DNA of 54,221 nucleotides, the filler included, from Jimgerdemannia flammicorona (Eukaryota), in the NCBI GenBank assembly GCA_003990765.1. It is 2 parts of 2 records of this genome, joined end to end, with 100 filler letters (N's around TTAATTAATTAA, not from the genome) between each part and the next. Parts side by side here need not be neighbours in the genome. Positions count along the whole stretch, not along the records: positions 27,165 to 54,221 come from RBNJ01000667.1; 1 more part is not named here. The stretch is one strand, 5' to 3'. How positions within the stretch are numbered: the stretch's first letter is position 1; each line of letters begins with the position of its first letter. The position numbers and the translations under genes are program-made. Positions 1 through 50,086 of the stretch are shown piece by piece. The notes beneath the pieces are model-generated. The model was not told where the DNA came from. It saw only the letters and a list, made by a program, of their open reading frames with translations, and searched no databases.

Positions 1-69
1 TTTTTTTTTTTTTTTTTTTTTATAGTTACTTAGACTCTCTTATTTATTATTAAACTAATCTATACCTAT

Positions 70-536
70 TGTGATAGTATAGCCAGATTTGGAAGAAGGA
101 AATAGGGAACAGACACTTGATTGCACCCAGTCCCAAAGTAGTATAGCCACATAGTTAGTAGTCCTCAATTCCGCCATTTGCTAAATATTTCACAAAGTGC
201 GAGATCGAGCTTCTCAATTTAGTATAGCATTTCACAACTGGCGAAATATTTCACAAAGTGTTAAATGACTCATAACTTAGCCACATAACCCAGTAACCAT
301 CTCATAGCTAGCAAACTTATATAAATAACCCAGTATCTTTGAGTGAATAAACCTCAGATTGAAATAGTTCAAAGCAAAGAGATAGCAAAGGAACTAGTAA
401 GCCTGCAGGCAGATATACTTCAAACTCACCCACCCTCCCCTGCAACTTCAAGAGACTCTATAAGAGTCAGAACAGTCAAGTTTTCAAGATATAGAAATCC
501 GACATACTTTCAAGAGTAAGCATCTGCTACATTACA
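70..536 (+). repeat. 5' LTR of element 1
   Basis: TG...CA ends (TGTGATAG...ATTACA), direct repeat of 5109-5534, TATA-like TATATAAATA at ~318-327, and internal direct repeat AAATATTTCACAAAGTG at 183 and 244. Confidence 0.95.
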
Positions 537-539
537 ACT

Positions 540-556
540 TGGTACCCATTGACTGG
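540..556 (+). promoter_or_regulatory. Primer binding site of element 1 (tRNA not assignable)
   Basis: TGGTACCCATTGACTGG starts 3 nt after the LTR end. TGG is complementary to the tRNA CCA end. Confidence 0.7.
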
Positions 557-650
557 TAATTCAAGATGAATTCCTCGCTTTCAAGCTGAACAATAAACAA
601 GCACCACTACCCGAACAACCTTACAAACTGAGCCCCAATACCCAGACAAG

Positions 651-3437
651 ATGGATATGAGATCACCAGTATTCTATAGATATACCTCAGATGAATCAAT
701 CATCACCTTCATTGACAATTTTGAGCAGTATGCCACTGTAAGAACCCTGACAGCAGCACAGCAAGTAGCCCTCATGCCCTTCAGCCTATGAGGTCCTGCC
801 AGAGCAGCATTCACAGCTGCAACCCATACAGGAAATGATACTGATGCTATACTGACAGCACAGAAGACCTGGCTCTGAAATTCATATTATATAGTTGAGA
901 TCAAGCAAGCCCTGAAGGATCAGCTCAATACAACAAACCAAGGAATGAGTGAGGATCCAAACACATTCTATACCAGAATTCAATATCAGATAATCCTTGC
1001 AGATTATGCTGCTGCTATCCGAGACCAAGTAGCTGAAGCAACCTTCATGAAAGGAGTCCATCCAGAAATAGCCATGGCCATCCACTCATCACCAGTGATT
1101 CTGGATCTGCCACCGAAGGTCACCTATACTCAGCAATACTGGATAGCCAGACATCCACAAGACCATACAATGGAAAAGGTTACAGGAGTCAGAATTGAGG
1201 CACCTAAGTCAACCAGTGTGATCTCCACCACAATGATCAATCGAAACACACCTCAGCCCAAAGCTACAGAGCAGCAAAAGAACAGTGACCCTATGGAGGA
1301 ACTTGCCAAAAGGTTTGCCAAAATGACTGCCCACCTGGGAGATATGGTAAAGAAAATTCAAAGAAGAGACTGCCACTCTGTTCAGAAGTTTGATGCCACC
1401 TCAGACAAGAAGAAAGGTACCTGCTACAGCTGTGGAGAAGAAGGCCACTACTCCTATGAATGCATGAGTGAAACTAAGTGCAAGGCTCAACCAAGCAATG
1501 TCACACAAAACAAGAAGCAGGCCAATACAATCACCTTTGAAGAAATCGGAGAATCCAATGAAGAGGAATGGAAGGCCTATCCTGCTCAGACCATCCTCAT
1601 TGGCAATCAATGGCTTCACAAAGCCAAGGCAGTAATCAATCTCAATGCTCAGAAGATGCAGATCACCTACCAGGGACAGAAGATATGAATTCCCATCAAT
1701 GTCAACAAAGGAGTCCTGTCTGACATAGAGGAAGAAGAGAGCAAGCAAGAGGAAGCTTATATGGTGACTACTCCAAAGAAGAAGAAAGTTGGATAGATAA
1801 GTAAAGAAGAATAGTACAAGAAGATCACAGAAGGTTATGCCCCACAAGGAGTCTGTACTCATGGGATCAAGATGTACTGTATGGAGTATATCAATGATTG
1901 CTACCAGTGTACTATCGGAATCAAGAAGATCCACCAGGAAAGAAGGCAGAAAGCTCTTGAAAAACAGATCAGGGAAGAAGAGAAGGAGGAAGATGAGGAA
2001 CCACCAGCCCTCCTAGAGAATAGTGATAATGAAGAAGAAATCAAGGTCAAGATTCAAAAGATTCACCCTGATGCAGTCTTGCCAGAATACAAGTCAGAAA
2101 ATGCAGCCAGAATGGATATCGCTACAGTAGAAGAGACTATACTGGAACCCCAGACAACCACCCTACTTGCAACTGGACTGGAGATGACCATCCCAAAGGA
2201 TCATATTGGGATTCTCAAGACAAGAAGCAGCCTGGCCAGAAGCAAAATTACTATCGAAGGAGGAGTCATCGATTTAGACTAGCCTGGAGAATTTGCCCCA
2301 AGACTCTATGTTGACTACAGAAAGCTCAACATGGTTACCAAAAAGGATCACCAACCACTGCCTCTCATCAATGACATCCTCATAATACTAGGAGATGAAG
2401 CACAGTACTATAGCACTTTGAACTTATACTCAGGATTCTACCAAATTGGACTCACAGACATAGCAAGTGAAAAGTCAGCTTTCATCACCCCAGATAGAAC
2501 CTACATCTACCTATGAATGCCATTTGGAATGTACAATGCACCAGCAAGTTTCTAGCAAATGATGAACAAAATCTTCCACTATGATATGGGAAGATGGATG
2601 ATGGTCTATGTTGATGATATAATCATCTACAGCCAGACACCAGAAGAACACCTGCAGCATATCTGGTAGATAATGGAAAGACTGAGAAAGCATGGCCTAT
2701 ACATCAAGCCCAAAAAATGCAAATTTGCAGAAATTGAGATCTCCTATCTTGGCCACATCATCAACTGAGAAGGAACACACACGGACCCCCTCAAGATACA
2801 AGCAGTAGTAGCATACCCAAGACCCACCACTGTTACAGAAGCCCAAGCCTTCATGGGACTTGCCTCCTACTATCACAGAGTTATTAGAGGATTTTCTAAT
2901 ATTGTGGGACCAATCTACAAACTTAACAAGAAGGATACCAAGTTCCAGTGGACTGGCAGACAACAAAAAGCATTCAATGAACTCAAGGTCAGACTGACCC
3001 AGGCACCCATCTTCAGAAGACCTTACTGGACTCAAGAATTCATCCTACAGACTGATGCAAGTGCACAAGGACTAGGAGCAGTCCTAGCTCAAAAGAAAGA
3101 CAAAGTGGAGTATATCATTGCATACCTCAGCCATGGAACCTGAGGAGCTGAAAAAGAATATGAATCCTACAAATTGGAATGTCTTGCAGTTATCTGAGCC
3201 ATAGAAAAGTTCCACTACTACTTGGCTGGGAGACACTTCACCATCCAAATAGACCACTCAGCTCTCACCTGGCTACTGACAACTGGATAACCCAAAGGGA
3301 TCTATGCCAGATGGATAATGAAGTTGCAACCTTATGATGTAACCATTGTACACCACTCTGGAAGAACCAATGCCAATGCAGATGCCCTCTCACAGATATC
3401 CCAAACTACCTCCAACCAACAAATCAACAATGAATAA
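651..3437 (+). pseudogene. gag-pol: gag-pol (Gag, CCHC knuckle, partial protease, Cys/His module, partial dUTPase, RT, RNase H) in one frame with in-frame stops
   Basis: CYSCGEEGHYSYEC knuckle; ILIGNQWL protease C-terminus; RLYVDYRKLN, MPFG and YVDDI RT motifs; LQTDAS and NANADALS RNase H motifs. All lie in the same frame. Confidence 0.9.
2040..2292 (+). pseudogene. dut: dUTPase domain of element 1 (motifs 1-3; C-terminus deleted)
   Basis: KIHPDAVLPEYKSENAARMDI...TGLEMTIP...KTRSSLA...GGVID. Confidence 0.9.
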
Positions 3438-4620
3438 GGAGCTCTACTATGGAATCATCACATACCTGGGACAGCAAAAGATACCCCAACATCTGGAAGA
3501 ATGGACACAAATGATTATCAACAGAACATAGAAATAATTCAAAACTGATGGAGAAACACTGAAGAAAGGAAAACTACTAGTCATACCAGAATACAAGAAG
3601 GAGCAAGCGATGAAATCAGTACACAAACTTGACCATCTAGGAGGAACAAATATATATGACAAGGCAAGAAGAACAATATAGTGGCCAGGGATGGAGGAAG
3701 ATATCAGAAAATTCATCAAGACCTGCAACAAATGTCAGAAACAGAAACAAGACCAACAAAATCAAGCCCCAGGATCAGCACACATAGAACCAGTACCATT
3801 TGACATTGTAATGGATGTAATTGGCCCTCTACTCTTGACTTTGACTGGCAACCGATACATCATCATCATCATAGACCTTTTTACAAAATGGATAGAAGCA
3901 GGACTTCTTATGGAAGCAAATACACAGTCAATCGCCAATTTCTTTCACAAAGAAATCATCTGTCAGTTCAAGACCCCAACACAAGTAACTACAGATAGAG
4001 AAACAGAATTTGTGAACCAGTTCTTTGAAGTTCTCTACAAGAAGTACAAGATCCAGCATATTCAGACCACAGTATATCACCCTCAAGGAAATGGACAAGT
4101 AGAAAGGACCAACAAAACCCTCAAGAATGTTATTGCCAAGATCTGCGATAACTATGAGAACTGGAATCACTATCTGCCAATAGCATTATCTACTCTTCAG
4201 GATATCTGATCACAAAGTACCCACTTTACCACTCGAGAAATACTGTTTGGAGAAGAATGTTCTCAGGGAACCCTATCATCCAATGGAGATGCTGTATGGA
4301 AACATGTGGACTTGGAAATACAGAGACTACACCAAATCAGGAAGATGGCTGAGGATTACATAACCAAGGTGCAGACACTACAATGGAGGAATGTGGAAAA
4401 GACCTATAAACTCTTGGAGATTATCAAGATAAGAGACAAAGTCCTAGTGTATCGGAATATGGTAGAAGCTTCATGGTCATGAAAACTTGAGCCCAAGTGG
4501 GAAGGGCCTTATCTGGTGCAAGATATAAAAGGGACCACCTTTTGGCTACGAAAACCCTTAGGCACAATAATCCCCACCAATATTCACCGAAACTGACTCA
4601 AGAAATATCATGGCCAGTAA
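3430..4620 (+). pseudogene. Integrase of element 1, in its own reading frame
   Basis: HHCC zinc domain (H..DHLG...CNKC), MDVIGP, TDRETEF, HPQGNGQVERTN and WEGPY motifs. ATG at 3430 overlaps the RNase H stop at 3435-3437. Confidence 0.9.
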
Positions 4621-5100
4621 CAAAAGTACTATAATAGCACTCAAGATCACTAGTGCTGCCCAAAGAGCCATTGAGAGACAACGGTGCACCACCAAGCCTC
4701 CGACCATAGAGGAGTCTTATGACAGTATCCAAAGCATTATACAGACTCATCTCTCTTGGATCTCACACTTCAAGGCCTATCAGCATCAAAACGAATTCCA
4801 AGAGTACTTCAAACTTGGCCAAGTACTCAACCAAGACCCAGAAATGACTAAAGAAAATTGGATTGCAGAATGCCACCTCTCCTATTCCCAGATCACCATT
4901 GCTAAGAGAATCTACAAGCTATTCTGAGAGGATGAACCAGCACTAGCCCACCTGCGAGAAGTGACTCCCTCAGACTTCGATCAAGTTAGGCAATACCATT
5001 GGGAAATAGTAATGCAACAAATCGCACAATACAAGACCATATAGACCATTGAAGCTTAGGAGTTTGAATAGATACTTCAGGGATGAGATTATCTATTCAG
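4610..5100 (+). pseudogene. Extra 3' ORF3 of element 1, unknown function
   Basis: ATG at 4610 overlaps the integrase stop. The ORF reads on through TGA/TAG stops likely derived from deamination and aligns with ORF3 at 48469. Confidence 0.7.
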
Positions 5101-5108
5101 GAGGAAGT

Positions 5109-5534
5109 TGTGATGGTATAGCCAGATTTGGAAGAAGAAAATAGAGAACAGACACTTGATCGCACCCAGTCCCAAAGTAGTATAGCTACATAGTTAGCAT
5201 CCTTGATTCTGCTATTTGCTAAATATTTCACAAAGTGCAAGATCGAGCTTCTTGATTTAGTATAGCATTTTGCAACTGGTGAAATATTTCACAAAGTGTT
5301 AAATGACTCATAACTTAGCCACAAAACCCAGTATCTTCAAGTGAATAAACCTCAGATTGAAATAGTTCAAAGCAAAGAGATAGCAAAGGAACTAGTAAAC
5401 CTGCAGGCAGATACACTTTGAACTCACCCACCCTCCCCTGCAACTTCAAGAGACTCTGCGAGAGTTAGAACAGTCAAGTTTTCAAGATACAGAAATCTGA
5501 CATACTTTCAAGAGTAAGCATCCACTACGTTATA
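5109..5534 (+). repeat. 3' LTR of element 1
   Basis: Direct repeat of 70-536 with transition differences and a 40-bp deletion. The terminal CA has become TA. Confidence 0.95.
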
Positions 5535-8500: not shown

Positions 8501-10329
8501 GATATATCTATAATGAAGCCTGGCAAAAAAAATTCAAGAAGCTAAGATAGAAGTCTCTCTCCTATAGTTCCTATAACTAATATCTGCTAGAGTTCAAAAT
8601 AAACTATTGATAATCACCAGATTCAGCACTAGCTGAGTCCCAATCTCACAATAAGAATTAGTACCAATTATTATACAAACTGCAGAAAGATATATAGGTA
8701 CATATTTATATATAGATATTGAAGAACAAAAGACAAAAATCCTCATTAATATAGAAGTAACTATCTGTATTATTGCTAAATAATACCTAGATACCCTCCA
8801 GTAGCTCATTGATAGACTATTCAACCTCAGTATCATAGTAACAGATGGCACCTAAACTCAACCTCTTAGAGAAGTATAAAATATCACAATCTCTCTTGGA
8901 CACATTCAGTTCTCTATTCCAAAAGCTGTTGTCATCAAAGCTGTCACCTATCATATGATTCTTAGCATCAACTAGATAAAGGAAATAAATGCAGTTATTA
9001 ATATTGGCTAATAGGTGCTCAAATTCGGCTATAGAGGAAATAAGTACATAATCAAAGTGATCATATATGAGTAATTAAAAAAGAAGAAGAAGGTTATTAT
9101 CCAGAAAGAGTGTGCCAGCAGCAAAGAATCTACTACTGAGGAAGAAGAAGAATCTGAAGATAGAAATGACCCAGACTCAATCCACAAACTAATCTGGTAA
9201 ATGAATGATCAAAAGGCAATGTATGGGCAAAAATCACCATCCCAATTATAATTGGAGCCATTACAGAATATGTCAGAGGATATCTCATATATTTTAAGAA
9301 ATACAAGTACTCTAAACACTCCTCTGAGATCATTGGAAGAAGGAATTTGTCTGGCATAGCCTGCTCTGAAAGTAGAAAAAGAAAGAAGAAACATAATCAC
9401 TCTCCAAAGTTACCTATAATTGAAGCTACTAAAGTATAAGCCATCTGGGGTTAAGAAATATCTGATGAAGAAACCCCTGAACAAGAAGTTTCTGAACAGG
9501 AGGAACTTTCTGAACTTATTTCCAGAAATGATCTCTACTATATACTACCAGAAGATAATAATCCCTAAAATATTTAAGAAGGACCAAGTATAGTTACCAT
9601 TGTTCCAAGATAAGAAACATACCAGAAAAGAGCCTTTTAGCTAGAAAGATACCAGCATCAGATAGTCTTTCACTCTTTCAGAGACTACTGTTATCAGTGC
9701 TATATACTAGATCAGTAATAGAGATATTTCAGACCAGAATCTCTGATCATAATCATACAGATAATTACTTTTCAAAAAACTACTACAATATTGAGAAGAT
9801 GAGCCTATAGATAAGATCACTTTATCTAAACTGAAGTATATCTCCTAGCCACCCTCTTCTTAACTTATAATAAGAATAGATACTAATTTCCAATATAGCA
9901 AAAAGTCAATAACTGAGAGCTATATCTTTGAATAATGGAATTTGTAGTTATGGAAAACACCCAGACTGCTAAGACTGATAATATCAGAGGATTCCACTCT
10001 GTTAAGATATTAAGCACATATATTCAAGAGAGATGATTACAGAGCTGAGATCTGAAAAAAGTAGGCCAAAAAACTAAAGAAGAAGACCCTCAAGATTCAT
10101 AATCTAGGAATTGACATCCTAGATCTCATTATATATAAAACTCATCAAGAATAAATTGAAGATACTGTCAGCATCATAAAAGCCCCAGATCTTATAGGAA
10201 AAAGAATAATTAATTACCTCTGAGACTCCTTTACTGGAGCCAGATGGCAACACCTCAACCTTAAAGTATAGAGACTTATATTCACTGGAGCTTTAGCTTA
10301 AGAATAATCTAAACTCAGCAAAGATATTA

Positions 10330-10735
10330 TCCAGTATATCTTATTATATCCCAAGGCCAAACTCCCAACAAAAGCTCATCAGGAAGATATAGGACATGAC
10401 CTTCACTACCTCAGAGATGAATCTATTAAGTCTGAAAGAACAATAGTACTTAGTACAGAACTAGCTATACAACCATCCAAAGGAACTTATATCCAACTGA
10501 TCTCAAGGTCTGAACTCACTAGATAAGTAATAACTGTAGAAGGAGTGACAATAAACCCTAGATACATAACCAAAATCATTGTCATCCCGAACAATAGCAG
10601 TATAGAATAGAACTATATGTATCTACAAAGGATAAAAGATTGTCCAAGTATCTTAATGAAGGTTAAGACTCCACAACTACAAGAAATCCCTAAACTGACT
10701 CAAGGCACAAGACAAACTAAAGAATTTGGAAGCTC
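10330..10735 (+). pseudogene. dut: dUTPase domain of relic G
   Basis: PKAKLPTKAHQEDIGHDL, TELAIQPSKGTYIQLISRS, VEGVTINPRY and TRQTKEFGS correspond to decayed motifs 1, 2, 3 and 5. Confidence 0.8.
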
Positions 10736-10799
10736 AGATAAGAAAGCAGTGCACCTCCTCCAGGTCAACCACTTCAAGAAGGGTGCTCCCCAACAAGTA

Positions 10800-22310: not shown

Positions 22311-22317
22311 GGGAATA

Positions 22318-27383: not shown

Positions 27384-30300
27384 GTGTGACCTATTGCTAT
27401 AAGTGAAGTATGTACTGGTCATATGAGGAAAATTCCTAATTTCAAAGATATCATCACTTATAGTTGTGGTTACACAGGGTTAACAGGTCTTGGTCCTCTT
27501 TTTTTTTGTCTGGTTGATGCATTTGTGAGGACTGGCCATTCTTATCTAGGGTGAGAGCTCACATTGTTATGGCTGGGGGTTCAAACCTCTCAGAAATAGA
27601 ATTTCTTGTAATTTGAGGCAATTCCTAGTAACAATATCTGTCATGTAGATGGACTTAGACTGGTTTCAATATTGTCAGCTTTCCTAAGTTCCATATGAAA
27701 TGTCCATCATCATCCAGCAGAGATGATACAGATGATATAAAATGGAGTTATTTAAATGTGTTTTACTGTACTATGCTAGATTGTTTATCACCTGAGTGTC
27801 TTTTCATTTATTAATTATAGTGTTCCTTTTTCTACAATGTTCAGTATTATATGTTACAGATAAAATATATAGTATCCTTCTGCTCACTATGTGCTCTAAT
27901 TCTTAAAGCTGTAGTTCCTTCCTTTGCTGGGGGGTGAGTGTTTTCATATAGTCCTAGAGGGCTTGTATGTATTCTTCAGAGTTTCTTCTTTTTCCCAAGT
28001 GGCATCATGGGTGGGGTAACCCTTCCACTTGATCAGAAAGAACTACTTGACTGTTTTGGAATATTTGTGGACCTTGTGGTCAAGTACTTCCTCAATTTTG
28101 AATTTCTCATGATCATTGATCCTAATTAGGGGTGGTGGTGAAACTATATGCTCAGGGAATGGGTTCTCATGGTAGTTCACCAATTGGCTGATATGGAATA
28201 CTGGGTGTACTCAGATATTGTGGGGAAGTTGCAACTTGTAGTTGACTTTGCTGACTTTTTCCACAATCTTGTATAGTCCAATTCTTCTAGCACAGAGTTT
28301 CTTGGCTGATTGTTGTGCTAGGGTATCCAGGTGGAGGTGATATGTTCTAAGTATGACCATATCACTAATATTGTAGGAGACTTCTCTTCACTTCAAGTTC
28401 ACACACTTGGTCTGATAGTCTTGCACTTCTATGAGAGCATCTCTTGTCATTTGGGTAAGATCAGAAATGATCTCAGCCAGATCTTGGACTGCTGAGACTG
28501 CTGATTTCACAGTAGTACTCAGAGTCCTTGGGTGTTGACCATAGTTCAGAAAGAATAGAATCTTCTTCATGGAGATTTACTGACTGTTGTTATAGGCAAA
28601 CTTGGCATAGGCTAGATACTTGTCCTAATCATTTTGCTTATAACAGCAGAAGATGCTAAGCATCTGTTTGAGAGTTCTGTTGGTTCATTTGGTTTGGCCA
28701 TTAGTCTGAGGGTAGTAGGCAGTAGAGAACTTCAGCTTGGTTCCATAAAGAGAGAAAAATGCCTTCCAGAGGTTGCTTGTGAACTTGGCATCTTAGTCAG
28801 ATACAATAGTACTAGACATACTATATAGCCTAAATACTTGATTGAGAAAAATCTCAGCAATCTCTAGAGCTATAGTGGTGGTCTTAGTGAGTGCAAAATG
28901 GGCTTGTTTACTTAGGCAGTCTATGAATACCATGATGGCATCCCATTCTGTCTTAGTCTTGGGGAGTTAGACAATGAAGTCTATTGTAATCTGATCTTAG
29001 TTATGACTCAGGATTGGTAGCAGTTGCAGAAGTCCTGCTGATAGCTTGTTACTACTTTTGAACCTTTGGCACATCTCACATGAGACCACAAAGTCTTTGA
29101 TGTTCTTAGTCATTTTAGGCCAGTAGAACTCTCTTAAGAGGAGGTTGTAGGTCTTTTTGAAACCAAAGTGTCCTACTGCAGGGGAATCATGGAGTTCCTG
29201 CATGATCTTGAGTTGTGGAGTATTATTATGGATACAACCACTCTGTTATGGTCTCTATAGATAAGTCCATTATGGTAAGTGAATCTCTTGGACATTTGCC
29301 TCATGAGTTCTGGGATCTTGGCTTCTGGGTCTTGGCAGAATTGGAGGAATTTCATTAGGGGGCTGTCCTGCTAGCCATCCTTGATCATCTGGGTCAAATA
29401 TCCAATTACCTTGACTATAAAGACAAGTTCATCTTCCATGTACCTAGAGAAACCATCAGCCATACAATTGGTTTTGCCTGAGATATACTTGATTTCCATA
29501 TCAAAGTTAGCAATGATTTCCATTCAGCAGGCTTGTCTGTGGGTCAGCATAAGCTGTGTGTGAATATACCATAGAATATGGTAATCAGTATAGACCACAA
29601 ATAGTTGTCCTAGAAGGAAATAGTGCCATTCCTGGAGTATAGTAACAATGGCCAGAAGTTCCTTCTCATGAGTAGTATATCAGGTCTCAGCTGGCTTGAG
29701 CTTTTGAGAAAGGTAGGCTACTGGGCAGTCTTTTTGGCTGATTACTGCCCCAATAGCAATGTCAGAGGCATCTGTGGTCAGAGTGAATGGCCTAGTAGGG
29801 TCAGGTGCAATTAGCACTGGGGCCTCAATAAGGAGTCTCTTGAGATGGTCCATAGTCAGGGTGTATTCAGGGGTTCATTCAGTTTTGATGTTTACTCCTT
29901 TGTGGGCCAGGCTGGTCAGTGGGGCTGCAATAGTAGAGTATCCTTAGATAAACCTTCAGTAGTAACTAGCAATACCCAGAAAGTACTATAGTAGCTTGAG
30001 GATAGTAGGGATAAGAATATCCTTAAGGGCTGATATCTTTCAGGAGTCCATATTGATACCTTCAGCAGAGATGATATGTCCTATATACTCAATCTGGTCT
30101 TGATAGAATTTGTATTTGCTCATCTTAGTATAGAGTTGGTGTTCTCACAGAAGGGTCAGTACTTGTCTGAGATAGGTATAGTGTAGCTCTACTGTTTCAC
30201 TGTAGATTAGTATATTGTCAATATATATAAGGATACAGATATTGAGGAGTGGTCCAAAGATGTCATTTATCAGATACTAGAATATTGCTAGCATATTAGT

Positions 30301-33300
30301 CAAACCAAAAGATATGACTTGGAACTGGTAGTATCCAAACCATGTTCAGAAAGCTGTCTTCTCAATATCCTTCTTGTCAATGAGAATCTGGTGGTAGTCA
30401 TTTCACAAGTCTAGTAGAGAAAAGGTCTTGGCCTTAAAGATTTGATATAGCAGCTCACAATTCTAGGCAAGGCATACCAGTTCTTGATGGTGATCTTGTT
30501 GAGAGCTCTGTAGTCAATATATATTTGCAGAGAGCTGTCCTTCTTCTTAACAAATAGAATGGGGGCTCCAAATGGAGAGTGGCTGGGTTCAATATATCTT
30601 TGGGCCAGTAATTTAGTCAACTCATCCTTAAGAGTCTTGAGCTCAGGTTGGGTCAGTTGATAGATACTCTTATATGGGGGTTCAGATCCTGAAATAAGAT
30701 CAATTCCATGTTAGATTTGACACTTGGGTAGAAGTCCTTGAGGATCTTGGAATATATCTCAGAATTCCTCAAACAGTTCTTGGACTTCTATTGGAATTGG
30801 GCTACTTGTAGCTTCAGTAACTTCTTGTACTGTGCAGATGAAATAAGTGTTTTCCTTTTTTCAAGAGAGTCTCTTCATTTGAATGGCAGAGATGATTTCA
30901 ATTCCTTAGTGGTTGGTACCTTCCTGGGGTGTCAGGGTGATCTTTCTGCCTTCATGGGTCAGGTTAACCTCGTTGGTTCTCCAGTTGATATCTGGGTTAT
31001 GCTGGGTCAACCAGGCTTTTCCTAGGATAATGTCTTGTCCTGGGAGGTCTACAATGCTGAAGTCCAACTTCTCTTGATATTTGCCAATCTTGAGCAAGAG
31101 ATCTTCACAGATTTTAGTCAATGGTGTAGTTTTACCATTACCAAAGATAACACTTCTTTTCTCAGTAGCTGGTCTGCTTCAGACTCCAATCTTCTTGACA
31201 GTCTTGATACTGATATAGTTTTCAGTAGCACCACTATCAAGCAAGACATTGATATTCTATCTGTAGACTTGGCCTGTGAACTTGATGCAACTGTCCTCCT
31301 TCTTGATGGTGTTGAGCTCTTTATTCTCATTATTGTCCCAATTGCTATCAGTCTCCTCAAAGTTAGTTTCTTCCTATCTTTCACAAGGAGGGTTGTCTTG
31401 TTTGGATTCCTCAGTCTGTTGGACTTGACACTTCTTGGATTGAATTTTGAAATCTTTGGAGAGGTATATATGGTATTCACCAATATGTTCTATATAGTAC
31501 ATTTGAATAGAATGAGGGCATCGTCCACATAGTGTATAACCATCTGCAATTCTCTTATACCAGTTTTCATCATCTTTCTTCATGGTAGTGACCTTTTGAC
31601 TGAGAGGTTTGTTGGTTGATCCAAACCCTTTCTTACTATGGTCTGTTTGTAAGAGCTTAGGGACTTCTTCAATGGTGAGATCTTGATAGATTTCTTCAAT
31701 AATTGTTTGAGCAATTCTTTGGCCTACTTTGACTTCAAATGATGTATCCCCAAAATTTTACAAGATGATACAGATTTCACCAGTAAATTCTTAATCAACT
31801 ACTCCTCTTCCTAGCCCAATATTGAACTCTTTGGCTAGGCTGCTTCATTCAGCAAGTTGGATGTATGTATCTTGGAAGCTTGTATTGTAATTCCTATTCA
31901 CACTGTAGCATTGGTACTTGGTAGAATAGTGAGGTCTTGACTGCTGTCGAGGTCATATCCAGTATCAGTTGGGTGGGCCTTAGTGGGGATGGTGTCCTTA
32001 TACCATATCTTCTGTACTTTGATGATATTCTCAGAGTTCTTCTTTCCTGGACCTTCTCCAATGATAGTAATGTTCTGGTTACTGTGTTTGCCTGATGTTT
32101 CTCTTCTCAGGGCATTTAAATGAGATGTGTCCTACCTTCTTACAGATGAAGCACAATCCCTTTTCACAGAGCTGCTTCTTTTCATCCTCAGTAGGAGGTC
32201 TGGGTCCTCTGGGGTTTCACTGGTTCCTTTGATCACTTCTTTGCTCATTTCTCTAGTCATTCCTTCTGGTAGGATTCCTCCTATCTTGGTTATCCTTCTT
32301 GTGTTCTTGATTTTATGGAGCTTGTGCAGCAAGGATTTTACAGGCTCTTCTTTGTACTTAGGCAAAGCACTATGAGTAGTAGGGACATCCTTGGGGAAGA
32401 CCTTGTTCCTTGATCTTCTGGGTGAGCCAGTCTGATAGGGCTGCAAAAAGATGGTTGGCTCTGATACCATTGATGACCAAATTGTTCTCCTGATAGGTAA
32501 GTCCAACAGTTTTGAGATAGGCATCCATTCTGATGGCAAAGATCTCTAGATTCTCTTTGCCATTCTTGTGGAACTTTATCTGGGACAGTTTGTTCCAAGT
32601 TTCTTGTATGTAGGCCATATTTCAGAATTTGGTCAGTAGCAAGGCCTTGAGTCCTGGGCCTGCTTCATAGTCATCCCAACCTGGTCTATTATTGGTAGGT
32701 GCTTGTCCATTGACTTGAGGGTGGTCTTCCCAGGTTACTGGATATTATTCTAAGGTTTGCCAGAATTTGGCTGCTGTTTCAGTGAAGAATATAGCTACTG
32801 TTTCCACTTATACTGCTGATGTGGCAAACAGCTGTTAAAGGGTGTTGTTCTGGTTATTTATGAGTATTCCTATAGGCACTCGGTTGTCATTCCATTGGTT
32901 TGCTCAGTAGTCTGTATCAACTATATTGATGATGTTTTCGATGTTACTGTTTTTTTCACTGAATATTGGGATTCACAGGGTCTTGGTTGGTTTGTTCTGT
33001 TCAGCAATCTGTCCTACTATCCCTGCTAGTACAGCTAGGTGGGTAGTCAGTGCTGCAATATTGACATCTACCATTGTATTGACTATTAGTGGTGGGCCTG
33101 TTGGGGTAGATTCTCCTGAAGATTGTTCTACTTGGTGGAGTTATGGTGTTGTATGACTTGGAGTTACTTGGTTCTCAGATATCAGATCAAAGAGTCCTGT
33201 GAGAGAGGGTAAACCAAACCTCTGTATAGATGACTGGGTTGGTTCTGGGGTCTGATTTTCTTGACCTGTGGTTCCTTGATAAATTCCTAGGCCTGCTGTT

Positions 33301-34744
33301 CCTAGTTGGCTATCATCAGACTGGTAACCTGTAGAGTCTTCATCTGACTTCCTTTCCTGATGAGAAAGTGCATCCTCATACTGGCTAGGTCCTTCAAAGA
33401 GGATATCAGTCTCTAGCTAGGTAGATGGGCCTGCTCCTTGTTCAGCAGTAGGAGATGGGTGGCCTGCTTGCTCGTTCTCATACCTGGTTATGGCAGAGGT
33501 ATAGTATACAACCAGCCTGTAGTAGAGAGAGGTTTTGGTAGGAGTATGATGATATCTGTCAGAGGCAATCCACTTGACAGCTGCTTCTCTTGCAGCAGGG
33601 GGTGTGATATAATCTAGAAAATCCTGGGTAGCTGCAGCAGTAGATTCTGGGGTTCCAGTGGAATGTGTCCTTGGAGAAGTTCATAGAACCTATGGTAGCT
33701 AACTATATTCCTAAGTCCTGAGTGGTAAGTCCTAAAGGCCTGGTATAGATCCTTATAAGCCTGGTCAATTACAAGCTGGTAGGTCCCTGGGTCTGTGGCT
33801 TCCTGATACCACCTGGTCCTAATGGCAAGGGCTTCTCTGGTTCTGATTTGGGGATCTACAGTTGGTCCTGGGGGTTACTCCTCTCCAAGGTTGGTCTTGT
33901 TCCAACTTCTCAGGAGTGTGTTCTTGATGTCTTCTTGGCTGGTAATCTGCTGCTACCAAGTTTTAATAACTCTCACTTCTACCCCTCTCTTATCCTTAGG
34001 ATAATTAGGGAAGTAAGACTATTACTTAGGAACTTAGTATATAATGTGTACCAAGAAGCCTTCAGTTTGAGGAAGTACTTGCTTATAAATAGTTGTAGTG
34101 GCAGTACCTTCTATTTCAAACATCTTTCTCTAGTTTGCCCTATCTTTCAAGAGTCTTGTACTTTGCTGTGCACAGACTGAATTCACCTTGGAATTCAGGT
34201 TCAATGGGTTTACTTAAGTCTTTGGGATTTATATACTGGTCTCAGTTCTGGCAGAAGTTAGCTAGGCTTCTGGAGTTTAGTCAGAAACACTAGAGTCACT
34301 TAGATGTCATTACTAAGACTCAGAAGAATATATGTGTGTGGGGGGGACTTGATTCTTGTATCAAGGACTGAACTAAAACTGCTTTATTTCAGATGGAAAC
34401 TGGGGGTATTTATAAAAGTTGGTCTGCAATTTCTGACTAAGTATGTGTGACTAATTTGATAACTATAATGAGGTTTGTGATCATGATCTTTGTTAGATGG
34501 TTTTTGGTAAAAACAACTTTGTGATCAGGACCTCAATTACTAGATAATGATTAGCTGCTGTGGTAATAGTTGCTGTGGCACTGGTTGTCAGAAATAAGCT
34601 GGATATTGTTTTTTGCATCATTTTTCACATCATTCATTTGTTCGTTATTTATATGTCATGCTTGATCATATGATGATTTCATTGCCAGGTCATGTGATCA
34701 CTTATTGCATCTTGTCTATTTGCTTGTTCATTCATTCTATTATA
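27384..34744 (-). mobile_element. Chromodomain Ty3/gypsy copy K (5' LTR, gag, dUTPase, PR, RT, RH, INT, CHD); 3' end missing at the LINE/gap
   Basis: Reverse complement of 40979-~48340. PBS TGGTAGCAGCAG at 33958-33947. Confidence 0.95.
33962..34744 (-). repeat. 5' LTR of copy K
   Basis: Inverted copy of 40979-41747 and 49308-50086. Confidence 0.95.
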
Positions 34745-40800: not shown

Positions 40801-40978
40801 GGAGGGGGTGGACCCTGAACAGCAGTGGTGGCACCTGGACTTCTCAGGGTAGGAGGGAAGGAGTTGAAGGGCTATTCTCTGGTTAAGGTGATGGAATGGG
40901 CCAGATCCAGCCCTCTCGAGTGGTGGCCAGTTGGTTGGCAGACAGCTGGTATTGGTGAGATGTGGGAATGGGTTAGAA

Positions 40979-41747
40979 TGTAATAGAATGAATGAGCAAA
41001 CAGATGGGATGCAATGAGATGAACGATCATGTAACCTGGCGATGACATCATCATACGATTGAGTATGGCATATAAATAACGAATGGACGAATGATGTGAA
41101 ATGATGCAGAAAACAATATCCAGCTTATCCCTGACAACCAGTGCTGCAGCAACAGTTGCCACAGCTGCTGATCATTGCCTAGTAATTGAGGTCCTGATTA
41201 CAAAGATATTCTTTACCAAAAACTACCTGATAAAGGTTGCGATCACAAACCTCATTATAGTTACCAAATTAGTCACCCATACTTAGTCAGAAATCACAGA
41301 CCAACTTGTATAAATACCCTCCAGTTTTCCATCTGAAATAAAGCAGTTTTAGTTCAGTCCTTGATACAAGAATCAAGTCCTCCCACCCCACACACATTCC
41401 CCTGAGTCTTAGTAATGACATCTAAGTGACTCTAGTGTTTCTGACTAAACTCCAGAAGCCTAGCTAATATAAGCCAGAACTGAGACCAGTATATAAATCC
41501 CCAAAGACTTAAGTAAACCCATTGAACCTGAATTCCAAGGCGAATTCAGTCTGTGCACACCAAAGAACAAGACCCTCGAAATAGGGCATAAGAGAAGGAC
41601 CTTTGAAACAGAAGGCACTGCCGCTACAACTACTTTAAGTGAGCGCTTCCTCAAACTGAAGGCTTCTTGGTACACATTGTGTACTGAGTCCCTAAGTAAT
41701 AGTCTACTTCCCTAATTATCCTAAGGATAGAAGTGAGAGTTATTACA
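40979..41747 (+). repeat. 5' LTR of copy L
   Basis: TGTAAT...ATTACA inverted termini, TATAAATA at ~41309 and AATAAA at ~41337. Confidence 0.97.
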
Positions 41748-41849
41748 ACTTGGTAGCAACAGTTTACCAGCCAAGAAGGCACCAAAGAACACACTCTTGA
41801 AGTTGGAACAAGACCAACCTTGGACAGGAGTAACCCCCAGAAATAACTG

Positions 41850-44800
41850 TGGATTCTCAAACCAGAGCCAGAGAAGCCCTTGCCATTAGGACTAGGTGGT
41901 ACCAGGAAACCACAGACCCAAGGACTCACTAGCTTATAATTGACCAGGCTTACAAGGATCTATACCAGGCCTTTAGGACATACCACCCAGGACTTAGGAA
42001 TATTGTTAGCTGCCATAGGTTCTATGAACTCCTCCGAGGACACATTGGAACCACTAGGACCCCAGAATCTACTGCTGCAGCCACCCAAGATTTTTTAGAT
42101 TATATTATACCCCCTGCTGCAAGAGAAGCAGCTGCCAAGTGGATTGCCTCTGACAGGTATCATCATACACCAACCAAGACCTCCCTCTACTACAGGCTAG
42201 GTGTATACTATACCTCTGCCATAACTAGGTATGAGAATGAGCAAGCAGGCCATCCATCCCCTACTGCTGAACAAGGAGTAGGCCCATCAACCTAGCCAGA
42301 GACTGATATCCTCTTTGAAGGACCTAGTCAGTACAAGGATGCACTATCTCATCAGAGAAGAGAGTCAGACGAAGACTCTACAGGTTACCAGTCTGATGAT
42401 AGCCAATGAGGAACAGCAGGCCTAGGAATTTACCAAGGAATCACAGGTCAAGAAGATCAGACCTCAGAACCAACCCAGCCACCTATACAGAGGTTCAGTT
42501 TACCCTCTCTCATAGGACTCTTTGACTTAATATCCAGGAATCAAGTAACTCCAAGTCATATAGTACCACAACCCCACCAAGTGAAACAATCTTCAGGAGA
42601 ATCTACCCCAACAGGCCCACCACCAATAGTCAGCACAATGGTAGATGTCAACATTGCAGCACTGACCACCCAGCTAGCAGCACTAGCAGGGATAGTAGGA
42701 CAGATTGCTGAACAGAACAAACCAACCAAGACTTTGCAAATCTCAACATTCAGTGGAAAAAACAGTGACATTGAAAACTTCATCAATGCAGTTGATACAG
42801 GCTACCGAGCAAACCAATGGAATGACAACTGAGTACCTATAGGAATGCTCACCAATAACCAGAACAGCACCCTTCAACAGCTGTTTGCCACATCAGCAGT
42901 ACAAGTAGAAACAGTAGCCACATTCTTCACTGGAACAGTAGCCGAATTCTGGCGAACCTTGGAACAACACCCAGTAACCTGGGAAGCCTGCCCTCAAGTT
43001 AATAGACAAGTACCTGGCAACAATAGACCAGGTTGGGATGACTATGAAGCAGGCCCAGGACTCAAGGCCTTACTACCGACCAAATTCCAAAATGCAGCCT
43101 ACATATAAGAAACATAGAACAAACTGTCCCAGATGAAGTTCTACAAATGGCGAAGAGGATCTAGAGATCTTTGCCACCAGAATAGATATCTATCTCAAAA
43201 CTGTGGGACTTACCTATCAGGAAAACAATTTGGCCATCAATGGTACCAGAGCTAACCATCTCTTTGCAGCCCTACCAGACTGGCTCATCCAGAAGATCAA
43301 GGAACAAGGTCTTCCCTAAGGATGTCCCCACTACTCATGGTGCTTTGCCCAAGTACAAAGAAGAGCCTGCGAAATCCTTACTGCACAAGCTCTATGGAAC
43401 CAAGAACACAAGAAGGATAACCAAGATAGGAGAAACCCCACCAGGAGAAATGATCAAAGATATGATCAACAGAATGATCAAAGGAACCAGCGAAACCCCA
43501 GGGGATCCAGACCTCCCACTGAGGATGAAAAGAGGCAGCTCCATGAAAAGGGATTGTGCTTCATCTGTAAGAAGGCAGGACACATCTCATTCAGATGCTC
43601 TGAGAAGAAGAATAGAGCAGGCAAACCTGGTAACCAGAACATTACTGTCATTGGAGAAGACCCAGGAAAGAAGAACCCCAAGAATATCATCAAAGTACAG
43701 AAGATATGGTACAAGGCTACTATCCCCACTAAGGCCCACCCAACTGATGCTGGATATGACCTCTACAGCAGCCAAGACCTCACCATCCCACCAAGTACTA
43801 ATGCTATAGTATGAACAGGAATTGCAATGCAAGCCCCCAGAGGTACATACATCTATCTTGCTGAGTGAAGCAGCCTAGCCAAAGAGTTCAACATTGGGCT
43901 AGGAGGAGGAGTAGTTGACCAAGGATTTACTGGTGAAATCTGTGTCATCTTGCGAAATTTTGGAGACACATCATTTGAAGTCAAAGCAGGCTAAAGAATT
44001 GCCCAAGCAATCATTAAAGAAATCCATCAAGATCTCACCATTGAAGAAGTCCCTGAACTCTCCCAGACAGATCATGGCAAGAAAGGGTTTGGATCTATCA
44101 ACAAACCTCCCAGTCAAAAGGTCACTACTATGAAGGAAGATGATGAAAACTGGTACAAGGGAATTGCAGATGGTTATGCACCATGTGGACGATACCCTCA
44201 TTCTATTCGAATGTACTACATGGAACATGTTTGTGAATGCCATGCATGTCTCTCCAAAGTTTTCAAAATTCAATCTGAGAAGTGCCAAGCTCAACAGACT
44301 GAGGAACCCAAACAAGACAACCCTCCTTGTGAAGGATGGGGAGAAACTGACTTCGAGGAGACTGACAGCAATTGGGACAACAATGAGGATGAAGAGCTCA
44401 ATACCATCAAGAAGGAGGACAGTTGCATCAAGTTCACAGGCCAAGTCCACAGACAAAATGTCAATGTCTTGCTTGATAGTAATGCTACTGGAAACTACAT
44501 CAGCACCAAGACTGCCAAGAGGATTGGAGCCCGAAGCAGACCAACTACTGAGAAAAGAAGTGTTACCTTTGGTGATGGAAAGACTGCACCATTGACCAAG
44601 ATCTGTGAAGACCTTTTGCTCAAGATTGGCAAATATCAAGAAAAGTTGGACTTCAGCATTGTAGACCTCCCAGGACAAGACATTATCTTAGGAAAAGCCT
44701 AGATGACCCAGTACAACCCAGATATCAACTGGAGAACCAATGAGGTTAACCTGACCCATGAAGGCAGAAAAATCACCCTGATACCCCAGGAAGATACCAA

Positions 44801-47800
44801 CCACTAAGAAATCAAAATCATCTCTACCATTCAAATGAAGAGACTCTCTCGAAAAAAGGGAATCACCTACTTTATCTGTATAGTACAAGAAGTCACTGAA
44901 GCTACAAGTAGTCCAATTCCAACAGAAGCTCAAGAACTGTTTGAAGAATTCCAAGATGTATTCCAAGATCCTCAAGAACTTCCACCCAAGTGCTAAATCC
45001 AACATGGAATTGATCTTATTCCAGGATCTGAACCCCCATATAAGAGTATCTATCAACTGGCTCAACCTGAGCTCAAGACCCTCAAGGATAAATTGACCAA
45101 ACTACTGGTCCAAGGATACATTGAACCCAGCCACTCTCCATTTGGAGCCCCCATTCTATTTGTCAAGAAGAAGGATGGCTCTCTGCGAATGTGTATTGAC
45201 TACAGAGCCCTCAACAAGATCACTATCAAGAACTGGTATGCCTTGCCCAGGATTGATGAGTTACTACACCAAATCTTCAAGGCCAAGACCTTTTCTCTAC
45301 TGGATTTGTGAAATAGCTACCACCAGATTCTCATTGATGAGAAGGACATTGAGAAGACAGCTTTCCAAATATGGTTTGGACACTACCAGTTCCGAGTCAT
45401 GCCTTTTGGATTTGCCAATGCACCAGCAACATTCCAGTATCTGATGAATGACATCTTTGGACCACTCCTCAACATCTGTATCCTCATGTATATTGATAAT
45501 ATACTAATCTGCAGCGAGACAGTAGAGCTATACTACACCCATCTCAGACAAGTACTGACCCTCCTGCGAGAACACCAGCTCTATGCCAAGATGAGCAAAT
45601 GCAAGTTCTACCAAGACCAGATTGAATACCCAGGGCACATCATCTTTGCTGAAGGTATCAAAATGGACCCCCGAAAGATATCAGCCCTTAAGGATATCCC
45701 TATCCCTATTACCCTCAAGCTACTCCAGTGCTTTCTGGATATTGCCATTTATTACTGAAGGTTTATCCAAGGATACTCTGCTATTGCAGCTCTATTAACC
45801 AGTCTGGCCTGCAAAGAAGTAAACATCAAAGCTGAATGGACCCCCAAATACACCCTAGCTATGGACCACCTCAAGAGACTCCTTACCAAGGCCCCAGTGC
45901 TAATTGCACCTGACCCTACCAGACCATTCACTCTGATCACAGATGCCTCTGATATTGCTATTGGAGCAGTACTCAGTCAAGAAGACCATCCAGTGGCCTA
46001 CCTCTCCCAAAAGCTCAAGCCAGCTGAGACCCGGTATACTACCCATGAGAAGGAACTCCTGACTATTATCACTGCACTCCAGGAATAGCGCCACTTCCTC
46101 CTAGGACAGCCATTTGTAGCCTATACTGATCACCATGCACTGTGGTATATTCACACACAGCCTATGCTGACCCACAGATAAGCCCACTGGATGGAAATCA
46201 TTGCCAACTTTGATATGGAAATCAAGCATATCCCAGGCAAACCATCCATATGGCTGACGGTTTCTCCAGATACATAGAAGATGAACTTGTCTTCATGGTC
46301 AAAGTAATTGGAGACCTTACCCAAATGATCAAGGATGGCTACCAGCAAGACAGCCCTCTGATGAATTTCCTTCAATTCTGCCAAGACCCAGAGGCCAAGG
46401 TTCCAGAACCCATGAGGCAAATGGCCCAGAGATTCACCTACTATGATGGACTTATCTACAGGGACTATGACAGAGTGGTTATACCCAACAATGATACTCT
46501 GTGACTCAAAATCATGCAGGAACTCCATGATACTCCTGCAGCAGGACACTTTGGTTTTGAAAAGACCTACAACCTCCTCTCAAGAGAGTTCTACTGGCCA
46601 AAGATGACTAAGGATATCAGAGACTTTGTGGCCTCATGCGAGATGTGCCAAAGGTTCAAATGTGGTAACAAGTTACCAGCAGGACTCCTGCAACCCTTGC
46701 CTATCCCGAGTCACAATTGGGACCAGATTGCAATGGACTTCATTGTCCAACTCCCCAAGACCAAGGCAGGATGGGATGCCATCATGGTATTTGTAGACCA
46801 CCTAAGTAAATAAGCCTATTTTGTACCCACCAAGACTACCGCTACAGCACCAGAGATTGCTGAAATTTTCCTCAATCAAGTATTCAGGCTACATGGCATG
46901 CCTAGCACTATTGTATCTGACTGAGACACCAAGTTCACAAGCAACTTCTAGAAGGTATTTTTCTCCCTCCATGGAACCAAGCTGAAGTTCTCTACTACCT
47001 ACCACCCTCAGACTGATGGTCAAACCGAGCGAACAAACAGGACTCTCAAATAGATGCTTAGCATCTTCTGCTGTTACAAGCAAAATGATTGAGACAAGTA
47101 CCTAGTTTATGCTGAGTTTGCCTACAACAACAGTCAGCAAACCTCCACAAAGAAGACTCCATTCTTCCTGAACCATGGTCAACCCCCAAGGACCCCAAGT
47201 ACTACTGTGAAATCAGCTGTCCCAGTAGCCCAAGATCTGACCGAGACCATTTCTGATCTTACCCGAATGACAAGAAATGCTCTCATAGAAGTACAAGACT
47301 ACCAGACCAAGTATGCAAACTTGAAGTAAAGAGAAGCCTCCTACAATATTGGTGACAAGGTCATGCTTAGAACAGACCACCTCCACCCTGATACCCTGGC
47401 ACAACAACCAGCCAAGAAACTCCATGCTAGAAGAATTGGACCATACAAGATCATGGAAAAAATCAGCAAAGTGAACTACAAGTTACAACTTCCCCACAAT
47501 ATCCAAGTACACTCAGTATTCCATATCAGCCAATTGGTGGACTACCATGAGAACCCATTCTCCAAGCATACAGTTCCACCACCACCCCCAATTAGGATCA
47601 ATGATCATGAGAAATTCGAAATTGAGAAAGTACTTGACCACAAGGTCTGCAAATATCCCAAAACAGTCAAGCGCTTTTTCCTGATCAAGTGGAAGGGTTA
47701 CCCCACCCATGATGCCACCTGGGAAAAAGAAGAAGCCCTGAAGAATGCATGCCAAGCCCTCCAGGACTATATGGAAACACTCACCCCCCAGCAAAGGAAG

Positions 47801-47815
47801 GAACTACAGCTCTAA
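41850..47815 (+). pseudogene. gag-pol: gag-pol of copy L: Gag, CCHC, dUTPase, Cys/His module, PR, RT, RH, INT, chromodomain
   Basis: [37 protein letters not shown] and YIDNI; TDAS; GHFG...CEMC; MDFI; HPQTDGQTER; GPY; FEIEKVLDH...IKWKGY...ATWE. Confidence 0.95.
43685..44095 (+). pseudogene. dut: Complete dUTPase domain of copy L (also at ~31615-32030 on the minus strand in copy K)
   Basis: All five motifs: DAGYDL, *SSLA, GVVDQGFTGEI, RIAQ and HGKKGFGS. Confidence 0.93.
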
Positions 47816-48396
47816 GCATGGGAGCACACAGCAAGCAGAAGGGTACTACATATTTTTAACTGGAAACATATAATACCAAACATTGCAGAGAAAAAAGGAA
47901 CACTATGGATAACCAACAAGAAGATACCTGAGCAAAAGAACAATCTAGTACAGTATAGCAAAATGCATTTGAACAACTCCATTTTATACCATCTGTATCA
48001 TCTCTGCTGGATGATGACAGATGCTTCATATAGAACTTAGGAAAGCTGACAATATTGAAACCAGTCTAAGTCCATCCACGTGACAGATATTGTTACTAAT
48101 AATTGCCTCAGATTATAAGAAAGTATATTTCCAAGAGGTTCGAACCTCCAGCCATGACAATGGGAGCTCTCGCCCTAGACAAGGATGGCTAGTCCTCACA
48201 AATGCGTCAACCAGACAAAAAAAAAAATGGACCAAGACCTGTTAACCCTGTATAACCACAATTATAAGTAATGATATCTTTGAAATCAGGATTTTCCTCA
48301 TGCAACCAGTACATGCCCTGCTTACAGCAACAGGTCATGTATTTTGCCAGAAAATGTGATCAAAGGAAGGTCACATCAGATGGGTGAATAAGTACA

Positions 48397-48468
48397 TATA
48401 AATACCCAAGGTAAGAATACCCTGCAACTCTCATCTCCCTCTTCTCACAAAGAAAAGACAAGACAAAA
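48397..48468 (+). promoter_or_regulatory. Putative internal promoter for ORF3
   Basis: TATAAATA at 48397, a CT-rich tract at ~48428-48447, and AAAATGTCT start context. Confidence 0.45.
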
Positions 48469-49296
48469 ATGTCTGCCACCTACCACCAAACTACCCACCA
48501 TAGCCAGCCCCTCCTAAGCCAGGTTAACCACCTCTTTGGACACATCCAGGTTGCTATCCAAGGAAGGAACTGCTGCTCAGAGGCCCTTAACCTCTCCAGC
48601 CAGGACCTAGGACACTATGTCCTCAACTGCTGTAAAGTCATCGAAAGAGCCTACCTTGCCACCAGCCACCTAGAGATCTGGCATAAATACAAGATTGGCC
48701 ATCAACTCCTCCAATGGGCAAATGACCTGCCCATGGACCAAGTCTCTGACTGGACTCACCTAGACAGGCATGAGCAAAGACTTGCCAAGAAGGTCCATCA
48801 AATCATGTGCCATGCACCCTTTGCAATCCCCAACTTCAACTATGTCCAACTGAAGGACTTCCAGAACCTCTCTTTCTTCAAGATTGATGAACTAGAGATC
48901 AAGGTAGCCCAAGAAGCCAACTCCTGGATCACTCCCAAATCTACTAACTGCGAACCCTACTGGAGCCCCCTCCTGAATGACAACCCTAACCAATGACTCC
49001 AAGGCCTCTCTGACCTCTTTAAAGGACCACCTATTCGAATGGATATTCCCAGGCATGAAGATCAAGTGCCCTACTTGGATGGCCCCAACCACATCAAATA
49101 GAGAACCCCTACACCAGTACCTATCCAAATGCAAAAACCATTTGCAGACCTCATTGACTTCTCTATCCTAGACAGCAAACCACCAGTAACCACCCCCCCT
49201 GCCCCTAAAGAAGATGGTAACAACCCTGAGAAGGATTCCCCACCTTTCTCTCCCCTGGTTCTCAATTTCTCAATCAACGAGGACATTGATTTTTAA
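48469..49296 (+). pseudogene. Extra 3' ORF3 of copy L, unknown function
   Basis: 175-aa open part (48469-48996). The frame continues through TGA and TAG to TAA at the PPT. Homologous to ORF3 of element 1. Confidence 0.75.
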
Positions 49297-49307
49297 GGGG
49301 GGAAGGA

Positions 49308-50086
49308 TGTAATAGAATGAATGAGCAAACAGATGGGATATGATGAGATGAACGATCATGTGACCTGGCAATGACGTCATCATATGATCAAGCATGGCAT
49401 ATGAATAATGAACAGATGAATGATGCGAAATGACACAGAAAACGATATCCAGCTTATCCCTAACAACTGGCACTGCAGCAACAGTTGCCACAGCTGCTGA
49501 TCATTGCCTAGTAATTGAGGTCCTGATCACAAAGATATTCTTTACCAAAAACCACTTGACAAAGGTCATGATCACAAACCTCATTATAGTTACAAATTAG
49601 TTACCCATACTTAGTCAGAAATTGCGGACCAACTTGTATAAATATCCCCCAGTTTTCCATCTGAAATAAAGCAGTTTTAGTTCAGTCTTTGATATAAGAA
49701 TCAAGTCCCCCCTCCCCACATACATTCCCCTGAGTCTTAGTAATGACATCTAAGTGACTCTAGTGTTTCTGACTAAACTCCAGAAGCCTAGCTAACACAA
49801 GCCAGAACTGAGACTGGTATATAAATCCCCAAAGACTTAAGTAAACCCATTGAACCTGAATTCCAAGGTGAATTCAGTCTGTGCACACCAAAGAACAAGA
49901 CCCTCGAAATAGGGCACAAGAGAAAGACCTTTGAAACAGAAGGCACTGCTGCTACAACTACTTTAAGTGAGCACTTCCTCAAACTGAAGGCTTCTTGGTA
50001 CATATTGTATACTGAGTCCCTAAGTAATAGTCCACTTCCCTAATTATCCTAAGGATAAAAGAGGGGTAGAAGTGAGAGTTATTATA
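49308..50086 (+). repeat. 3' LTR of copy L
   Basis: Direct repeat of 40979-41747. The terminal CA has become TA. Confidence 0.97.

Follow-up and report, generated by a model that had tools for sequence, protein, structure and literature searches.

A small Cys/His module, apparently unnamed, in the dUTPase region of Ty3/gypsy elements of Jimgerdemannia flammicorona

Based on analysis of a stretch of J. flammicorona DNA of 54,221 nucleotides (the window) and of related copies we found that Ty3/gypsy retrotransposons of several families carry a small Cys/His module in the dUTPase region of pol. The module is coding and under selection, has a four-ligand pattern, occurs in three domain orders (dUT-M-PR, PR-M-dUT and M-dUT-PR, with M for the module and PR for the protease) and gives a tree that conflicts with the protease tree. 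The domain is real, small and apparently unnamed, and the elements that carry it are of a known kind. We tentatively read it as a zinc-binding, optional accessory of the dUTPase region in Ty3/gypsy Gag-Pol that was anciently exchanged, with a function that we infer; as a whole we put this reading at a little below an even chance.

Modules and elements in the window

The two contigs of the window meet at 27065-27164 (two runs of N), with element 1 and relic G on the first (1-27064) and K and L on the other. Decayed retroelements make up the window throughout, and the copies in it are dead. The features are as follows.

69..5532, + strand: element 1 (E1), from LTR to LTR; Ty3/gypsy, LTRs 91-94% alike
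1593..1690, + strand: C-terminal remnant of the element 1 protease; 222 codons upstream (the catalytic half) deleted relative to L046
1812..1910, + strand: module core of element 1, long form; four of four ligands, order PR-module-dUT
2046..2279, + strand: N-terminal half of the element 1 dUTPase; remainder deleted into RT (176 codons, the second dUTPase half and the RT start)
9650..9700, + strand: module of relic G, short form; x-x-H-x10-C-x2-C, Tyr at the first ligand, inside a long protease-dUTPase insert
10350..10742, + strand: dUTPase relic of G
27430..34716, - strand: copy K, inverted sister of L; 78-95% alike by segment, mostly 86-90%
31464..31562, - strand: module in K, decayed; terminal C-x2-C gone
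40970..49892, + strand: element L, LTR-Gag-dUT-module-PR-RT-RH-IN-SH3-chromo-LTR; chromodomain-type Ty3/gypsy
43557..43598, + strand: Gag CCHC knuckle of L (PF00098, E=0.006, under the cut-off), separate from the module
43689..44105, + strand: dUTPase of L (Pfam PF00692); stops interrupt the reading frame in the window copy
44106..44150, + strand: short variable linker of L from dUTPase motif 5 to the module, with KVTTM at 44118-44132; unlike between families
44151..44249, + strand: module core of L, long form; W...C-x-H-x12-C-x2-C, Tyr at the first ligand and at the middle Cys
44250..44291, + strand: predicted C-terminal helix of the L module (helix 39-55 in the model of an E1-family copy)
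44292..44423, + strand: acidic linker of L from module to protease
44424..44790, + strand: aspartic protease of L (Pfam PF13975/PF13650)
46505-46813: integrase domain of L (Pfam search)

Having LTRs, Gag, the PR-RT-RH-IN order and a dUTPase domain, the module-bearing elements are dUTPase-bearing Ty3/gypsy LTR retrotransposons. The LTR parts of element L are 88-95% alike, and its chromodomain follows the integrase at 47330-47815 (PF00385, E=7.6e-13; PF24626); none was seen in element 1 (69..5532). Relic G belongs to a further Ty3/gypsy family. Open frames past the integrase at 4571-4927 (element 1) and 48415-48996 (L) matched no Pfam family above the cut-off, and their pairwise E was 0.37. The window also holds an element at 16869-22563 (- strand) whose terminal repeats are split and which carries RT (PF00078, E=8e-7); its ORF at 18466-19143 is presumably tyrosine recombinase-like, and we take the element to be DIRS-like. 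Strongly G-skewed, decayed non-LTR-like elements, with endonuclease/RT-like frames seen by eye, flank L at 36000-40500 and 50600-54000 (+ strand).

The 33 residues of the L module (44151-44249, + strand) read WYKGIADGYAPCGRYPHSIRMYYMEHVCECHAC, and the element 1 module at 1812-1910 reads *YKKITEGYAPQGVCTHGIKMYCMEYINDCYQC. By BLASTP 20 of 45 residues were identical (E=7e-11), which bears out the counterpart that the preliminary description had proposed for element 1. The same description gave one string for K and L together. It is true of L, but the K module (31464-31562, - strand), WYKRIADGYTLCGRCPHSIQMYYIEHIGEYHIY, is without the terminal C-x2-C; the string therefore belongs to L alone, and the two copies had been merged. 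The motif reported for relic G was also present, as ...ERYQHQIVFHSFRDYCYQC with its end at 9700, but with a His-to-Cys spacing two residues below that of the long form, for which reason it is called the short form here. The acidic flanks of the module were found as described, and so were the orders dUT-M-PR in K and L and PR-M-dUT in element 1, the latter confirmed in the fuller copies L046, L048 and L050. A linker common to L and element 1 had been suggested as well, but did not hold up: VTT is out of register by six residues and absent from other families, and the best DNA match of L with E1 (73% over 100 nt) covered the module alone, with the VTT linker outside. A profile built from relatives scored 70.8 bits for E1, 68.3 for L, 53.6 for K and 10.8 for G, scores that are circular for L, E1 and G, and at best 1.4 in 20 shuffled windows. 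The Cys of 'VCEC' in L is a private change; the remaining copies compared have Gly or Ser there, or in one case Asp.

Ligand pattern, predicted fold and relatives

The ligands that stay constant, both in the genomic copies and in 20 metagenomic proteins, form the pattern C-x-H-x12 (or x10)-C-x2-C. The long form has W/F-Y..G-Y.P.G.C.H-x12-C..C and the short form A-F..G.C.H-x10-C..C, and the two aligned profile-to-profile (probability 92, E=6e-7); their linked differences are W/F-Y..GY.P.G in the long form versus AF..G and F.SP.D in the short. The middle Cys, found in 6 of 14 long forms only, and the second His were rejected as ligands. CHCC is complete in 17 of the 19 whole modules from databases, in keeping with the Cys/His conservation expected earlier. 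Judging from this pattern, the Cys-x-His and Cys-x2-Cys pairs probably hold one Zn2+. That the pattern is metal-free or due to chance, and the stretch a conserved helical linker, appears highly improbable; sequence and fold searches gave no homologous zinc finger, but exactly four potential ligands, arranged as C-x-H and C-x2-C pairs, are near-invariant among families that are 25-45% identical.

AlphaFold, run with a 16-row alignment on an E1-family copy, gave a model (pLDDT 91.7, pTM 0.73) with a helix at 6-14, short strands forming a hairpin, and helices at 32-37 and 39-55. The model suggests that the module folds as a small domain of its own, some 45-55 residues long. As the preliminary description had it, the domain carries no familiar name: profile searches and structure prediction led to no significant match in Pfam, PHROGs, NCBIfam, the PDB or the fold searches. 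With 16 members, Pfam gave sub-threshold matches only (zf-C5HC2, DUF1451). Three named domains were considered and rejected. For zf-C5HC2 (PF02928), which has five conserved Cys plus His, the best score was 18 bits versus a cut-off of 22, in 2 of 16 members, and the middle Cys is confined to the 6 long forms mentioned. The Gag CCHC zinc knuckle (PF00098) has C-x2-C-x4-H-x4-C versus the order C, H, C, C here and matched none of the 16 members; the integrase HHCC zinc domain (PF17921/PF09337) likewise matched none of the 16, and the integrase of L lies separately at 46505-46813.

The zf-CHCC, DnaG CHC2 and GRF zinc fingers have the ligand order Cys, His, Cys, Cys. This is also the order in the module, which differs from them in its spacing, C-x-H-x10/12-C-x2-C, and in a predicted fold that is mostly helical. 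None of the three had a Pfam match at E<=1 among the 16 members, in searches where HMMER filters drop most matches above about 0.1, and their absence from the fold-search lists is compatible with a common fold. PDB sequence searches gave best E values of 1.6 and 0.22, Foldseek against the PDB and BFVD gave 0 matches at E<=0.001, and VIA-align over 48,161 chains reached a best Z of 3.8, an absence of match that is no proof of a new fold. The best ESM Atlas score was 0.86, to unnamed clusters, with no usable match otherwise, and the PHROGs and NCBIfam matches were weak, concerned one or two members only and were never significant. Full-text literature searches did not find a description of the motif; TE libraries or the supplement of PMC2864245 could hold one.

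A three-family profile run against 1.84 billion representatives gave 15 matches, 12 of them with the module. Two were repeats (P0007, P0013) and were left out, as was P0015, a look-alike outside retroelements; this protein of 167 aa has two C-P-H-G-x8-C-x2-C repeats in tandem and a part at its N-terminus that is hydrophobic. Through word searches P0016-P0022 and P0023 joined the set, so that the module-bearing database proteins number 20. All 20 came from metagenomic or run-derived sources and 0 from NCBI or UniRef; the 19 that were checked (all except P0021) are singletons, P0022 excepted. By eye, P0001, P0002, P0018, P0019, P0021 and P0022 resemble families of this genome. In IMG/VR 0 of 16 candidates were confirmed, and the sole candidate from JGI metagenome contigs (L116, 1 of 33) was a false match, antisense to a bacterial gene. 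The known range of the module is this genome and metagenomic pieces.

Genomic copies, selection and a probable old exchange

When the modules of L, E1 and G were searched against the genome (231 Mb surveyed), 4640, 4820 and 1079 candidates came up, of which the best 150 each were scored, so that all counts are lower bounds. Because such searches rank by likeness to the module, loci were also sampled by neighbouring DNA, 30 by the L protease (29 mapped) and 30 by the E1 dUTPase (27 mapped). All four ligands were intact in 17 of 29 L copies and 22 of 27 E1 copies from these samples; in the L sample the successive ligands were retained in 28 (Cys), 28 (His), 24 (Cys) and 22 (Cys) of the 29. Departures from the commonest base were mostly G>A or C>T (124/139 in L, 89/136 in E1), and from this pattern the ligand losses in genomic copies are decay after insertion. 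Tyr at the first ligand was seen in the window L copy only, among the 29 L copies mapped, and the soil runs X1, X2 and X3 have Cys codons at the positions where L has Tyr; a 425-nt contig of soil run X2 spans the dUTPase end, the module and the protease start.

G>A and C>T changes also dominate the mutation spectrum of L- and E1-family copies as a whole (L187-L246) and weigh far heavier in the G family, which suggests a methylation- or RIP-like process. Internal deletions were noted in two copies: at L054:1262-1471 one fuses the EEEW of Gag with the EEEW of the module, which are similar short words, and in L157 another fuses the tail of an H-family module (VPMP) with RT.

Six pairs of L and E1 copies were compared. 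The 33-codon core was 61-70% identical, RT 44-47%, dUTPase 37-39%, CCHC 29-39% and protease 23-28%, so the module is indeed more alike than Gag or protease, as first described; 0 of 225 33-codon windows of RT were at 60% identity or above. Silent sites were saturated throughout (pS 0.61-0.84 in the module, 0.65-0.78 in RT), and pN was lowest in the module (0.21-0.25, with 0.37-0.39 in RT). The likeness of the module therefore reflects strong purifying selection and no recent DNA swap, and a recent transfer between L and E1 is ruled out, since pS is saturated as in RT. Between G and G2, the module had a pN of 0.08 and a pS of 0.97.

Trees were built from 12 rows for the protease and 5 for RT, and the AU test of the module used 13 rows and 45 columns, with P0006 and P0016 placed by domain order as their proteases were too short for the tree. 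The protease tree split elements with dUTPase before protease from those with protease before dUTPase (100/100), and the RT tree of 5 rows agreed. Either side of this split has modules of the long as well as the short form, and the long/short division of the module tree (100/98) runs across it. Constraining the module tree to the protease lineages was rejected over the 45 columns (p=0.0014) and non-significant with the 28-column core only (p=0.06), and for the long forms alone vertical descent stood unrejected (p=0.29). AU tests of the dUTPase tree for co-transfer of module and dUTPase gave p=0.09-0.14, a result that speaks neither for nor against it, with L and E1 dUTPases as divergent as stated above.

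Since the lineage-constrained tree is rejected and both forms occur in two protease lineages, the sequences support an old exchange between these lineages. Of the swap between families put forward at the outset, the conflict with the protease tree thus holds, less clearly in the core, but the saturated silent sites make the swap an old one. Recombination would long ago have carried the module between chromodomain-type and non-chromodomain lineages. Alternatively there was no exchange, and the module came down vertically from a common ancestor that already had it, while the long and the short form arose repeatedly and the domain order was reshuffled. We consider this improbable: saturated silent sites, the compatible long-form tree and the core-only p value agree with it, but the full-module AU test, the crossing of two well-supported splits and the several linked features in which the forms differ argue against it.

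Association with dUTPase and possible role

Further module families in the genome are L137 (dUT-M-PR), L169 (PR-M-dUT), and G2 and H (short form). A dUTPase was present in 7 of 7 module-bearing families seen in the genome and in 14 of the 20 module-bearing database proteins, the remaining 6 being pieces of 82-248 aa; no module without dUTPase in full context was found among the 7 families or the 14 sufficiently long proteins. P0023 is an intact 1569-aa frame of Gag-PR-M-dUT-RT-RH, and P0020 has the third order, M-dUT-PR, in which dUTPase stands between module and protease. It is therefore adjacency to dUTPase, rather than to protease, that is constant.

In the favoured reading the module would sit at the C-terminus of dUTPase (dUT-M-PR) or at its N-terminus (PR-M-dUT, M-dUT-PR) and may still be fused to it once the protease has processed the precursor. 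The fused module could then keep dUTPase close to the RNA and reverse-transcription complex or to the capsid. Such a fusion with a tethering role is plausible by analogy, although we hold it with less confidence than the reading as a whole. The module is near neutral (K+R 3-10 and D+E 4-7 per 41-45 aa), so protein binding is favoured over nucleic-acid binding.

Several observations count against the accessory reading. One dUTPase family does without the module: 28 of the 29 loci L118-L146 gave no profile match, the protease motif lies at the same short offset in 15 of them, dUTPase joins protease directly in the three that were read fully, and the element (e.g. L127) is Gag-CCHC-dUTPase-protease-RT. 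The module was also looked for and absent in a host-type dUTPase (L117, a probable host gene). The near-neutral charge and acidic flanks, unlike basic NC, weigh the same way, and in G and H the module lies about 250 codons upstream of dUTPase, amid other Cys/His clusters. Against the exchange part of the reading count the AU results for the core (p=0.06) and the long forms (p=0.29).

The long protease-dUTPase insert of G, G2 and H (window 9170-10350; L108, L113, L114, L098, L148) contains C-x2-C-x5-C-x2-H, C-x2-C-x6-C and C-x-H-x5-C-x2-C clusters and a conserved LDP...TGA-x-WP block. Comparison of G with G2 shows the insert to be under selection (pN 0.26, pS 0.64).

Two other roles were weighed. 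The module may serve as a spacer or regulator, stabilised by zinc, where protease and dUTPase meet; it would allow the protease dimer and the dUTPase trimer to fold within a single precursor, or time protease activation, and would have no role after processing. In both main orders the module does lie between the two enzymes, with acidic linkers on the far side, and its long predicted C-terminal helix could self-associate. We nevertheless regard a spacer as unlikely, as the module of P0020 is upstream of dUTPase and away from the protease, the dUT-PR family manages without it, and conservation above that of RT would seem to exceed what a spacer usually needs. The second possibility, in our estimate rather unlikely, is a small zinc protein set free on its own, whose partner would be a host factor or some element protein apart from dUTPase, the interval between Gag and RT merely tolerating cargo. 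The hydrophobic beta-type runs KVTTM and LNTIK beside the L module, which we take to be putative cleavage sites, resemble other domain borders; the same interval of G and H holds several other Cys/His clusters, and identities of module and dUTPase do not track each other. Set against release are the constant company of dUTPase in every full context and the mostly short polar linkers at the dUT-M junctions.

Fungal Ty3/gypsy elements are known to have dUTPase at variable pol positions, among them the Pol N-terminus and the interval between PR and RT, and both sites found here match those of PosPlaTy3-3, -4 and -5 of Postia placenta and of Phanerochaete and Tuber (Tmt1) elements (PMC2864245). 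In the part of that source available, only CCHC and HHCC zinc motifs are named for these elements, with no C-x-H-x10/12-C-x2-C beside dUTPase, and what dUTPase does in fungal LTR elements is described as unclear (PMC2864245). Planarian elements have dUTPase between PR and RT (PMC6431247), and the accessible part of an Entomophthora preprint reports dUTPase enrichment only (10.1101/2023.09.13.557621). Juno LTR retrotransposons of bdelloid rotifers have an extra zinc motif after dUTPase in pol, as in dUT-M; this additional knuckle lies between dUTPase and RT, and the comparison is by description, with no rotifer protein among our named matches (PMC5408684).

The betaretroviral NC-dUTPase (MMTV p30, MPMV) is a zinc domain fused to a trimeric dUTPase, as proposed here, and the fusion has been suggested to bring the enzyme to the site of reverse transcription (PMC4531489). 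The betaretroviral NC is a basic, N-terminal CCHC protein of Gag, fused through a gag-pro frameshift (PMC4531489). The module is instead CHCC, near neutral, in a single open frame and on either side of dUTPase, and does not belong with it. A bolder version of the accessory reading, which we think quite unlikely, would make the module a new small zinc fold and a plug-in adaptor passed between distant lineages, tethering or regulating dUTPase from either end and convergent with NC-dUTPase.

The finding extends the known inventory of Ty3/gypsy elements modestly; its scope is narrow, and the copies here are dead. It contributes a small domain so far undescribed, which may be a new zinc fold, and a clean example of shuffled domains, with three orders in two lineages. 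P0023 offers an intact example of a module-dUTPase element, and the presence in one genome of dUTPase families with and without the module provides a natural contrast for testing the role of dUTPase.
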